From Rhodoferax sp. (GTDB lineage Bacteria; Pseudomonadota; Gammaproteobacteria; Burkholderiales; Burkholderiaceae_C), in the NCBI GenBank assembly GCA_025358555.1, contig JANYJD010000036.1, positions 1-60,056 of the forward strand: a stretch of 60,056 bases of DNA, read 5' to 3'. The number at the start of each line of letters is the position of its first letter. Position 1 is the stretch's first letter. The notes below the pieces were generated by a model, which was not told the origin of the DNA, made no database searches, and was given only the letters and a program-made list of their open reading frames with translations. Positions 21,428 to 23,002 of the stretch are shown one piece after another. A program made the translations under genes and the position numbers.

Positions 21428-23002
21428 ATGACCTACCTTCTCGCCCTGGACCAGGGCACCTCCAGCTCCCGCAGCATCGTCTTCAATGCCGACGGCCAGC
21501 CTGTGGCGATGGCGCAAAAAGAGCTGACGCAAATCTACCCGCAGCCCGGCTGGGTGGAACACGACCCCGAGGAAATCTGGCGCACCCAGCTCGCCACCGC
21601 GCGCGAGGCGCTGGCCAAAGCAGGCATCCACGCGCGTGACGTGCGCGCCCTGGGCATCACCAACCAGCGCGAGACCACGGTGGTGTGGAACCGCGCCACC
21701 GGGCTGCCCATCCACCACGCCATCGTCTGGCAGGACCGCCGGGCCGAACCCACCTGCGTTGAGTTGCGCCAGCAAGGCCTGGCTGACACGATTCAGGCCA
21801 AAACCGGCCTGCTGATAGACGCCTATTTTTCAGGTACCAAACTCAAATGGATTCTGGACAACGTGCCCTTGGCCAGGCAGCAGGCCGCCAACGGTGAGCT
21901 GGCCTTTGGCACGGTAGACACCTGGCTCGTCTGGCGGCTGACCGGCGGCGCGGTGCATGCCACAGATGTGAGCAACGCGTCGCGCACCATGCTGTTCAAC
22001 GTGCGCACCAACCAGTGGGATGCCGACCTGCTGCGCGCGCTGGACATCCCCGCCAGCCTGCTGCCGGTGGTCAAGCCATCCAGCGCGCACTATGGCGAAG
22101 TCAGCCCCGAATTGCTGGGCCACGCCATTGCAATCGGCGGCGTGGCAGGCGACCAGCAAAGCGCCCTGTTTGGGCAGGCCTGCTTCAAGGCCGGCATGGT
22201 GAAAAACACCTACGGCACCGGCTGCTTCATGCTGATGCACACCGGCAACAAGTTTCAGACATCGCACAACGGCCTCATAACCACCAGCGCAGCGCAGATA
22301 GCCCCCACGCTTGTCGCTTCGCGTACTGCGCTGCCCCCCGAGGGAGCGCAGTCTGGCTTGGGGCGGCCCGGCGCTGCGACCGACCACGGCCAACCCCAAT
22401 TTGCCCTAGAAGGCAGCGTGTTTGTGGGCGGTGCGGTGGTGCAATGGCTGCGCGACGGCCTGCATGCCATCAAGGGCAGCGAGGAGGTGCAGGCGCTGGC
22501 TCAAAGCGTGCCCGATTCTGGCGGCGTCATCGTCGTGCCGGCCTTCACCGGGCTGGGCGCGCCCTACTGGAAACCCTACGCGCGCGGCACCATCACCGGG
22601 CTCACACGCGGCAGCACCGTGGCCCACATTGCCCGTGCAGCGCTGGAAAGCATCGCCTACCAAAGCGCCGCGTTGCTGCAAGCCATGAGCCGGGACGCGG
22701 TGCTGGCCGGCGGCGCCAGCGTGGCCGAGCTGCGCGTGGATGGCGGCGCCTGCATCAACGATCTGCTGATGCAGTTCCAGGCCGATTTGCTGGGCATCCC
22801 CGTGGTGCGCCCCGCTGTCACCGAGACCACGGCGCTGGGTGTGGCCTACCTGGCCGGGCTGACCACCGGCGTCTTCAAAAGCACCGGCGAGCTGTCGGCG
22901 ATGTGGCGAAGCGAGCGGCGCTTTTTGCCCACGCTGGACACACCGCGCGCCACAGAACTGATGGCGCGCTGGGAACATGCGGTGCGACAGACGGTGCTCT
23001 GA
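21428..23002 (+). CDS. glpK: glycerol kinase (carries an extra internal segment)
   Basis: [19 protein letters not shown]..., [33 protein letters not shown] and RVDGGA. At 524 aa it is longer than the roughly 500 aa I recall for GlpK proteins. Confidence 0.93.
22295..22390 (+). repeat. REP-like sequence embedded in frame inside glpK
   Basis: Contains the hairpin CTGCGCT-GCCCCCCGAGGG-AGCGCAG. Its 14-mer CTGCCCCCCGAGGG (22331-22344) is identical to the one at 29096-29109, and it is followed by GCAGTCTGGC (GCGGTCTGGC in the intergenic copy). Confidence 0.5.

Follow-up and report, generated by a model that had tools for sequence, protein, structure and literature searches.

An in-frame copy of the Beta-proteobacterial repeat element in the glycerol kinase gene of a Rhodoferax sp.

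How does a glycerol kinase gene come to hold some 28 extra codons in the middle of its reading frame, and what kind of sequence are they? The question arises at glpK of a Rhodoferax sp., which lies at 21428-23002 on the plus strand (524 aa) of the DNA analysed here, namely contig JANYJD010000036.1 of assembly GCA_025358555.1 at its full length of 60,056 nucleotides (the window). A preliminary description of this DNA took the extra codons for a REP-like palindromic element that had landed in the gene and been retained in frame. We find that they match a family already named, the Beta-proteobacterial repeat element (BRE). The account that we consider very probable as a whole is that a BRE copy sits at the tip of a β-hairpin of GlpK, is tolerated there as a disordered loop, was likely imported by recombination and evolves as nucleic acid.

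The host gene is identified by the list of open reading frames, by an NCBIfam scan (equivalog TIGR01311 at 686 bits and PRK00047 at 728 bits) and by matches to solved GlpK structures in the PDB (E values of 1e-181 to 1e-169). Every one of these structure alignments falls into two stretches, stopping at query residue 289-290 and resuming at 320 with one to three target residues in between, and about 28 window residues are unmatched against E. coli 3EZW and Elizabethkingia 6UDE. Nearly all diverse GlpKs found in a search of 1.84 billion representatives likewise align as two stretches with the break at residue 288-292. The inter-strand loop of GlpK normally has 10-12 residues, and most of the best 120 homologues are 496 aa long and lack the segment, including the nearest of them (P0002, 96% identical); the orthologues are thus not equally long throughout, and the extra segment is real. 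The 39-residue string that the preliminary description quoted for this part of the protein is correct, as is, by structure alignment, the figure of 11 residues that it gave for E. coli. It placed the segment rightly and began it three nucleotides too early, at 22295: bases 22295-22297 are the Q290 codon, and the insert begins with I291 at 22298. The in-frame insertion at 22298-22381 (plus strand, residues ~291-318) corresponds to one BRE copy in sense orientation and is absent from P0002/L003. Its repeat-derived part ends at about 22380, for a net gain over the empty allele of 84 nt. The junction codons that follow, D319-Q324 (22381-22399, plus strand), are a remnant of the native loop of 5 residues and resemble those of the donor-type alleles L127 and L005, not those of the empty allele L003.

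The window alone cannot establish a repeat family, and a profile and loci from outside it were therefore needed. A search of the window against itself (blastn-short and a repeat finder) gave nothing beyond the 14-mer CTGCCCCCCGAGGG that the preliminary description had found in both the insert and an intergenic element. This 14-mer is exact at 22331 and 29096 and is weak evidence taken alone (10 of 100 shuffles gave at least three matches at up to two mismatches). Orthologous inserts from six other assemblies have nearly identical DNA over the first 50 nt and over TTGGGGCGGCCCGG. Scanning one genome per species for the exact pattern CCCCCCGAGGG, 6-30 bases, TTGGGGCGGCCCGG yielded at least 120 loci across many Burkholderiales genera, with Comamonadaceae, Alcaligenaceae and genera of Sphaerotilaceae type among them: Hydrogenophaga, Polaromonas, Rhodoferax, Variovorax, Ramlibacter, Acidovorax, Xenophilus, Ottowia, Rubrivivax, Roseateles, Ideonella, Sphaerotilus, Methylibium, Achromobacter, Bordetella, Pigmentiphaga, Burkholderia, Trinickia and Thiobacillus. 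Among the matches listed, only one locus is glpK (L099, from Acidovorax sp. SCN 68-22). A profile made from the glpK inserts finds copies outside glpK in the fetched loci and also in the window at 29063-29122, and nhmmer counts 153 copies in 1.03 Mb. The copies often stand in tandem arrays with a period of 81-84 nt (as in L061, L062, L065, L095 and L109, with a tandem pair inside glpK of L001/P0005).

To avoid circularity, a profile hidden Markov model was built from 118 copies outside glpK only. This profile matches the window at 22296-22386 (E 5.8e-22) and, between genes, at 29061-29136 (E 6.4e-11), which extends the kinship of the two places well beyond the 14-mer. It also matches four published B. 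pertussis BREs (List S1) with E values of 3e-16 to 6e-13 over model positions 3-77, the whole unit; on the reverse strand the latter have their parts in the order of the family, with CCCCCACGCT first, then a small hairpin and GCTGCCCCCCGAGGGGGC, and lastly an A/T stem that encloses TTGGGCGGCCCG. Since a profile free of glpK copies matches both the insert and the published elements, the glpK insert is, by profile match, a copy of BRE, and the earlier reading as a palindromic dispersed repeat kept in frame stands.

BRE was described by Hot et al. (2011, BMC Genomics 12:207; PMC3110155) as an element of 75-91 bp with ~69% GC that occurs as dispersed copies and tandem arrays, their number varying between strains. 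That study counted 8-22 copies in Bordetella species and 29 in Polaromonas sp. JS666, named Rhodoferax, Acidovorax, Delftia and Azoarcus as further hosts, remarked that some copies lie wholly within coding sequences, and detected BRE-containing transcripts in B. pertussis, among them the small RNAs bprJ1/J2 (PMC3110155). The net insert of 81-84 nt in the glpK alleles falls within the published length range. The Bordetella copies have A/T-run stems and are mostly intergenic, whereas the window copy is coding and its last stem is partly decayed. A search of Rfam, run at the gathering threshold and again with E values up to 10, matched no family to the element, and a literature search found no later paper on BRE and none containing the diagnostic sequence strings.

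The copy number of the repeat is also visible in metagenomes. In four runs with the glpK locus, contig depth is 8-40 in the flanks and 3000-6600 at 22303-22333, and many contigs diverge exactly at 22300/22301 and at 22344, which marks the conserved core of a high-copy repeat. The runs found for this locus were of DNA type only. Joints that skip 157-195 nt around the insert were also seen; they are anchored by 20-30 nt and were not used as evidence for an empty allele.

Conservation among 126 copies and their consensus fold resolve the unit into an invariant block A followed by hairpins B, C and D. Block A (GCCCCCACGCT, 22301-22311, plus strand) forms the 5' edge of the unit, upstream of which, at 22300/22301, the metagenome contigs diverge. 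Hairpin B (CGCTTGTCGCTTCGCGTACTGCGCT, 22308-22332, plus strand) is small and has compensatory variants (GTCGC/GCGTAC, GCCAC/GTGTGC, TTCAC/GTGTAA and CCCGC/GCGTGG); in per-copy folds the observed structure is more stable than its shuffle in 69 of 84 copies. Hairpin C (CTGCGCT GCCCCCCGAGGG AGCGCAG, 22326-22351, plus strand) includes the 14-mer at 22331-22344 and contains the hairpin noticed earlier. Its family consensus GCCCCCC-GA-GGGGGC is invariant, the window copy having one G-to-A change (GGGAGC), and the CTGCGCT/AGCGCAG stem is an extension of it. Hairpin D (22352-22380, plus strand) consists of a left arm at 22352-22357, the loop TTGGGGCGGCCCGGC at 22358-22372 and a right arm at 22373-22380. 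Its loop is conserved across the family, and its stem of 5-16 bp is specific to each copy yet complementary.

This last stem covaries strongly. Across eight columns and 126 copies, which have 84 distinct left arms, 81.7% of cells are paired. Shuffling the partners among copies lowers this to 53.8±1.2% (57.7% being the maximum of 1000 trials), and sliding the partner by one to three columns lowers it to 59% or less. In the window copy the arms pair poorly, whereas those of the glpK copies in L002 and L099 pair perfectly (9 bp each).

The intergenic copy of the window, at 29061-29166 on the plus strand between two branched-chain amino-acid permease genes, is a variant with typical blocks A-C and without loop D. 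In place of that loop it has an alternative 3' module at 29109-29166 (GCCGCTGCGCCTGCGGTCTGGCAAAGCCAGTCCCGCGGC...), which recurs at 87-89% identity in two genomes of Polaromonas (L046 534-580; L079 5283-5329 and 5388-5434). This suggests, from the sequence of these few copies, a BRE subfamily with a swapped third hairpin.

Is the lodging of a BRE inside a gene exceptional? The preliminary description held in-frame retention to be an unusual fate, and the wider sample contradicts this. Counting a copy as in frame when the frame is open through the element and the coding GC pattern (position 3 > position 1 > position 2) holds on both sides, we find 30 such copies outside glpK in 28 of 120 loci, or ~20% of the ~150 copies sampled, 21 in antisense and 9 in sense orientation. 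All 20 of the open reading frames submitted to Pfam are known protein families, with the element within a domain or splitting one. The hosts include formate-dehydrogenase-like molybdopterin oxidoreductases (two genomes, two sites), acyl-CoA synthetase, a biotin carboxylase domain, UvrD, UvrA (two sites), threonine synthase, an AcrB-type pump (four tandem copies, period 81), GcvT (the same site in Hydrogenophaga and Rhodoferax), phosphoglucose isomerase (pgi), GlmS, an APH-type kinase (the same site in two genomes), a nitrilase-family hydrolase (two copies), HrpA, a FemAB-like protein (three copies), RadA and GspE. The FdhA-like oxidoreductases carry the element at different positions (L014 1176-1259 and L078 4766-4846), as do the UvrA genes (L018 313-396 and L026 4808-4868), and these cases are independent insertions, in contrast to glpK, gcvT and the APH-type kinase, whose sites are shared. 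The encoded peptide reads (I/M)APTL.A.R.ALPPEGA..LGRPGG in sense and ..AGPPQ or PGRPK...APSGGS....VGA in antisense orientation. In 65-90% of copies all six frames are free of stops, and Gly, Ala, Pro and Ser make up 66% of the peptides, so that read-through would usually be harmless. In-frame residence is common for BRE, not unusual. We further note a 29-aa 'gene' between two ABC-transporter genes (L004 3434-3523) that coincides with a BRE (nhmmer 3440-3520) and is probably an annotation artefact of it.

What the insert does to the kinase was examined in an AlphaFold model. An alignment of 52 close homologues gave a model with a pLDDT of 58, which was discarded; with a diverse alignment of 96 sequences the pLDDT is 94.9 and the pTM 0.93. 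The model superposes on solved GlpKs with query-normalised TM-scores of 0.90-0.92 and root-mean-square deviations of 0.9-1.9 Å. Its sole low-confidence stretch is residues 291-320 (block means 60, 50 and 56), a coil between strands 284-289 and 324-331, and the insert is thus modelled as a loop at the tip of a β-hairpin. The nearly invariant motif residues of the GlpK family are present in the window protein; we take these to be, by E. coli numbering, D8/G10/T11, R81/E82, D242/Q243, T264/G265, G439/G440 and N444. Five of 150 diverse GlpKs have unrelated longer inserts in the same loop. These longer inserts, together with the duplication and deletions tolerated among the carriers described below, support the view that the modelled insertion site is a permissive surface loop.

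On this basis we propose that a BRE would have entered glpK in sense orientation at the tip of the β-hairpin (strand 284-289 / strand 324-331), a site apparently tolerant of change, as other GlpKs vary in length at the same position. It may have survived there because the unit is a multiple of three bases (81-84 nt), because it is without stop codons, and because its Gly/Ala/Pro/Ser-rich peptide would form a disordered loop that leaves the kinase fold and catalytic motifs intact.

We next consider how the segment has evolved since. When eight glpK genes that carry the insert are compared in pairs, third-position identity amounts to 0.56-0.58 in the flanking glpK sequence, 0.84 in BRE blocks A-C, 1.00 in loop D and 0.46-0.56 in the stem arms plus junction. 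In the latter the first two codon positions are about equally variable (0.63-0.66), with no codon pattern. Stem D arms have changed in a compensatory way between orthologous glpK copies, reading GGTCTGG/TCAGACC in L004, TTGTCCAGC/GCTGGACAG in L002 and CTGCACGGC/GCCGTGCAG in L099. With synonymous sites conserved and arms changing at all codon positions, the segment behaves in evolution like a nucleic-acid element, not like a peptide under selection. Within the proposed history, the BRE blocks in glpK would thus change more slowly than flanking synonymous sites while the arms change, often compensatorily. The nucleotide-level conservation would stem either from constraint or function, or from homogenisation by gene conversion.

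The first of these leads to the strongest of the alternatives, which is compatible with the proposed history and adds a function to it: the BRE in glpK may be kept as a working nucleic-acid element, whether as a protein-bound RNA or single-stranded DNA structure, as a site of mRNA processing or stability, or as a source of small RNA comparable to bprJ in Bordetella. The blocks kept at synonymous sites (0.84-1.00 against 0.57 in the flanks), the compensatory stem D pairs between the glpK copies of L004, L002 and L099, the family-wide covariation in two hairpins and the BRE transcripts of B. pertussis (PMC3110155) are all consistent with such a role. However, copies lie within genes in both orientations (21 antisense, 9 sense), G.U pairs outnumber A.C pairs by only 53 to 27, stems are weaker in coding than in non-coding copies, the window copy has a hairpin C mismatch and a poor stem D, and gene conversion would yield the same pattern, for which the apparently replaced hairpin of L006 is a candidate case. 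We regard such a function as possible, though on balance rather doubtful.

How did the insert reach this allele? The same glpK site is filled in the same frame in ~35 of the best 120 homologues, and the carriers include Polaromonas jejuensis (an isolate genome), uncultured Rhodoferax and Acidovorax sp. SCN 68-22. What had been described as a landing in this gene is indeed an inserted repeat, though one whose site is likewise filled in glpK of Rhodoferax, Polaromonas and Acidovorax, several lineages of the Comamonadaceae. Alleles with partial deletions or a tandem duplication (P0013, P0017, P0025, P0050, P0103 and P0005) occur among them; several carrier inserts have internal deletions of 5-14 codons, and P0005 (555 aa) has two tandem BRE copies in GlpK. 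In a neighbour-joining tree made without the insert region the carriers are not monophyletic, and the window protein falls inside a tight clade of empty-site proteins. In DNA, the window and the empty allele L003 share ~93% identity over the full length of the gene (102 mismatches among 1491 aligned bases), whereas against other carriers the flanks are ~80% and the insert 88-97% identical. The six loop codons after the element together with the next Leu codon are 34/39 identical to L127 and 32/39 identical to L005, and against L003 they give no match and a poor gapped alignment. All carriers have an identical junction and frame. Because these junction codons are like those of carriers and not like those of L003, and a fresh insertion would spare the local flank, the window allele probably gained insert and junction together through a short tract of homologous recombination, as judged from this comparison of alleles, and not by a new insertion.

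The variants of the insert bear on its later course. Stem variants follow clades, an 'ALSS' type being common to P0014, P0020, P0029 and P0042, which fits descent with change. In L006 the hairpin looks like it was replaced from another copy, the old right arm still lying downstream. We further note that in L099 (~2350-2390, minus strand) a second, partial 5' block (ATTGCCCCCACGCTTGCCGC) comes after the complete BRE and abuts the native ...CCCGAGTTC; the arrangement resembles a tandem pair whose second unit has been mostly deleted. The glpK of L128 (10001-11596, P0019) is a mosaic, 97-100% identical to the window from ~22217 and 48-90% in its 5' half, and is either a chimeric metagenome contig or a recombinant allele. 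It was considered as the donor allele and set aside as a chimera whose 3' half is identical to the window and hence uninformative.

A fresh, site-specific BRE insertion at a glpK hot spot, independent of the other carriers, would also account for carriers scattered over the GlpK tree and for a window protein nested among empty-site alleles. Such targeting finds some support in the flanks. The native GCAGCGCAG just before the element (22289-22297) resembles the right arm GCTGCGAC (22373-22380), and a resemblance between flank and right arm is seen above chance throughout the family, which could reflect targeting guided by micro-homology. Scored by its best 9-mer match to the right arm or the 3' flank, the 5' flank averages 6.0 where controls average 5.57±0.10, and the share of copies that match at 7 or more of the 9 bases is 33%, compared with 14% for controls; the signal is weak but significant. 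Four of 40 single copies have exact direct repeats, 8 nt or longer, between the 5' flank and the right arm or the 3' flank (controls average 0.34, with a maximum of 3), those of 8-10 nt being in L043 (330), L073 (2253), L100 (5630) and L111 (495). Where the flank is repeated at the right arm, the left arm is complementary to the flanking target. The resemblance itself could be an eroded target duplication, a relic of a tandem unit or a trace of homology-guided integration, to go by the matching bases. Against a fresh insertion, the loop codons and Leu codon match the carriers (34/39 for L127) and not L003 although the local flank should be intact, and junction and frame are identical in all carriers. 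We therefore think this origin unlikely for the window allele.

Two further readings fare worse. Under the first, selection on the protein has shaped a GlpK loop specific to the lineage, its likeness to a repeat being coincidental. In its favour, the peptide is well conserved among carriers. However, the same DNA occurs between genes and, in both orientations, in ~28 unrelated genes. Synonymous sites are conserved whereas amino acids change freely in the arms, the protein tolerates partial deletions as well as a tandem duplication, and the loop is a low-confidence coil in the AlphaFold model. This reading is already contradicted and we hold it to be very improbable. The second, that a repeat was collapsed into glpK by an assembly or binning artefact, may appeal to the high-copy repeat region in source-like metagenomes and to the chimera within glpK of the related contig L128, but has a negligible chance of being right given that more than 30 independent assemblies, the Polaromonas jejuensis isolate among them, have the insert in frame at one and the same site, and that a contig spans 22323-22456 at flank-like depth.

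Several observations weigh against import by recombination of a tolerated, nucleic-acid-like BRE. The recombination tract can be made out clearly at its downstream junction only; on the upstream side, 6 mismatches in 58 nt to L003 compare with ~7% overall and are not significant. The loci were sampled by an exact pattern, which over-represents well-conserved copies, and the high conservation of the insert could partly come from recent spread and not from constraint. Ten of the 30 in-frame copies were assigned by the GC-frame heuristic alone. The window copy is itself partly decayed, with its hairpin C mismatch and poor stem D. Single copies fold no better than shuffles (minimum free energy z-scores of -1.7 to +0.8, 0.1 for the window copy); folding energies are uninformative in such GC-rich sequence, and the structural evidence accordingly rests on covariation. 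The uninterrupted stem D is also shorter in coding than in non-coding copies (5.2 against 6.7 bp, p 0.004; chimeric control 3.5 bp), and structural constraint inside genes is thus relaxed, though not absent. Finally, that the loop is tolerated without loss of enzyme function or cost is our inference.

Repeats that lodge inside genes have a well-known precedent. Rickettsia palindromic elements (RPE) were reportedly found inside genes by Ogata et al. in 2000. They are palindromic repeats in frame inside protein-coding genes (PMC10969869) and, like BRE, occur many times in unrelated housekeeping genes, with a family-typical peptide at positions compatible with the fold. The two differ in size (~80 nt for BRE against roughly 100-150 nt) and in hosts, which are free-living GC-rich Burkholderiales for BRE and AT-rich obligate intracellular Rickettsia for RPE. 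BRE, unlike RPE, is found in both orientations, in tandem arrays and with a copy-specific covarying stem. The NCBIfam scan of GlpK returned only sugar-kinase families and Rfam none, no direct DNA comparison with an RPE consensus having been made; these library scans, together with hosts and composition, set BRE apart from RPE in sequence.

REP, BIME and REPIN elements (mobilised by RAYT transposases) are, like BRE, short GC-rich hairpin repeats, often clustered and mostly between genes, for which roles in mRNA stability or protein binding have been proposed. However, REPs are by definition extragenic, and each is one imperfect palindrome, 20-40 nt long and headed by GTAG or CGTC, whereas the BRE unit has three hairpins in ~80 nt, starts with GCCCCCACGC and is intragenic in ~20% of copies; it is thus not a REP. 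MITEs and intragenic elements of the ERIC or Correia type are small non-autonomous repeats able to fuse in frame with open reading frames (PMC10969869). The consensus fold of the 126 copies has no terminal inverted repeats of MITE type, block A being without an inverted partner at the 3' end, and repeats resembling target-site duplications appear in BRE only as a weak statistical signal.

The BRE family itself (2011) and its occurrence within coding sequences were known. The paper that described it (PMC3110155) is without hairpin anatomy, covariation analysis, a statement on reading frame or a mention of glpK. New here are the glpK instance and its spread over several genera, the three-hairpin anatomy with its covariation, the extent to which copies lie in frame and do so in both orientations, and the conservation at the nucleotide level inside a gene. 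A broader reading can be put on these results, to which we give somewhat less than an even chance: BRE would be a counterpart of RPE in free-living bacteria, an ancient nucleic-acid module of three hairpins that lies in frame within housekeeping genes of Burkholderiales at about one fifth of its sites. Its blocks and stems would be actively maintained inside coding sequence, through synonymous sites and compensatory changes, by a function in RNA or DNA or by gene conversion, and its copy-specific stem may match the flanking target, a hint of homology-guided integration.

Other features of the window concern the surroundings of glpK or lie apart from it. Upstream of glpK is glpD (19715-21331, minus strand, Pfam) and downstream proC (23048-23863, Pfam). 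The divergent glpD and glpK are only ~95 nt apart (21332-21427). A DeoR-family regulator gene lies just upstream of glpK in L002, L003, L004, L005 and L006, and in L002 and L005 it lies between glpD and glpK; it is not at this position in the window. A GC-rich palindromic element stands at 31745-31814 between the open reading frames 30377-31723 and 31840-32673. The 8-mer TGTCGCTT that had been thought to link it to the insert is not meaningful: the family profile gives no match to it. As a candidate BRE member it was rejected, since neither profile matches and its blastn relatives, in Variovorax loci, are weak (L058 E 4e-4, L101 E 1e-3); it is possibly a different repeat family. At 45663-52496 three large proteins of secreted type, all with RTX calcium-binding repeats, are encoded in a cluster. 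In one of them a matrixin/serralysin-like peptidase is joined to Ig and cadherin-like domains, another shows RTX repeats alone, and the third, on the minus strand, has a subtilase and a P-domain; the RTX repeats account for the direct-repeat families D1, D2 and D14 of the window. A tRNA gene lies at 10565-10638 (minus strand; Rfam RF00005, 65 bits).

For annotation, these results explain a recurrent insertion of 27-28 residues in many Burkholderiales proteins, recognisable by the marks IAPTL..LPPEGA..LGRPG in sense and ..GPPQ/GRPK..APSGGS.. in antisense orientation, which an annotator might take for a domain, a frameshift or a small gene. They also indicate that repeats inside coding genes, famed from RPE, occur on a large scale in free-living GC-rich bacteria as well. 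The filled, empty, duplicated and partly deleted glpK alleles form a natural series in which the neutrality of the insert and the upkeep of its sequence and hairpins can be tested.

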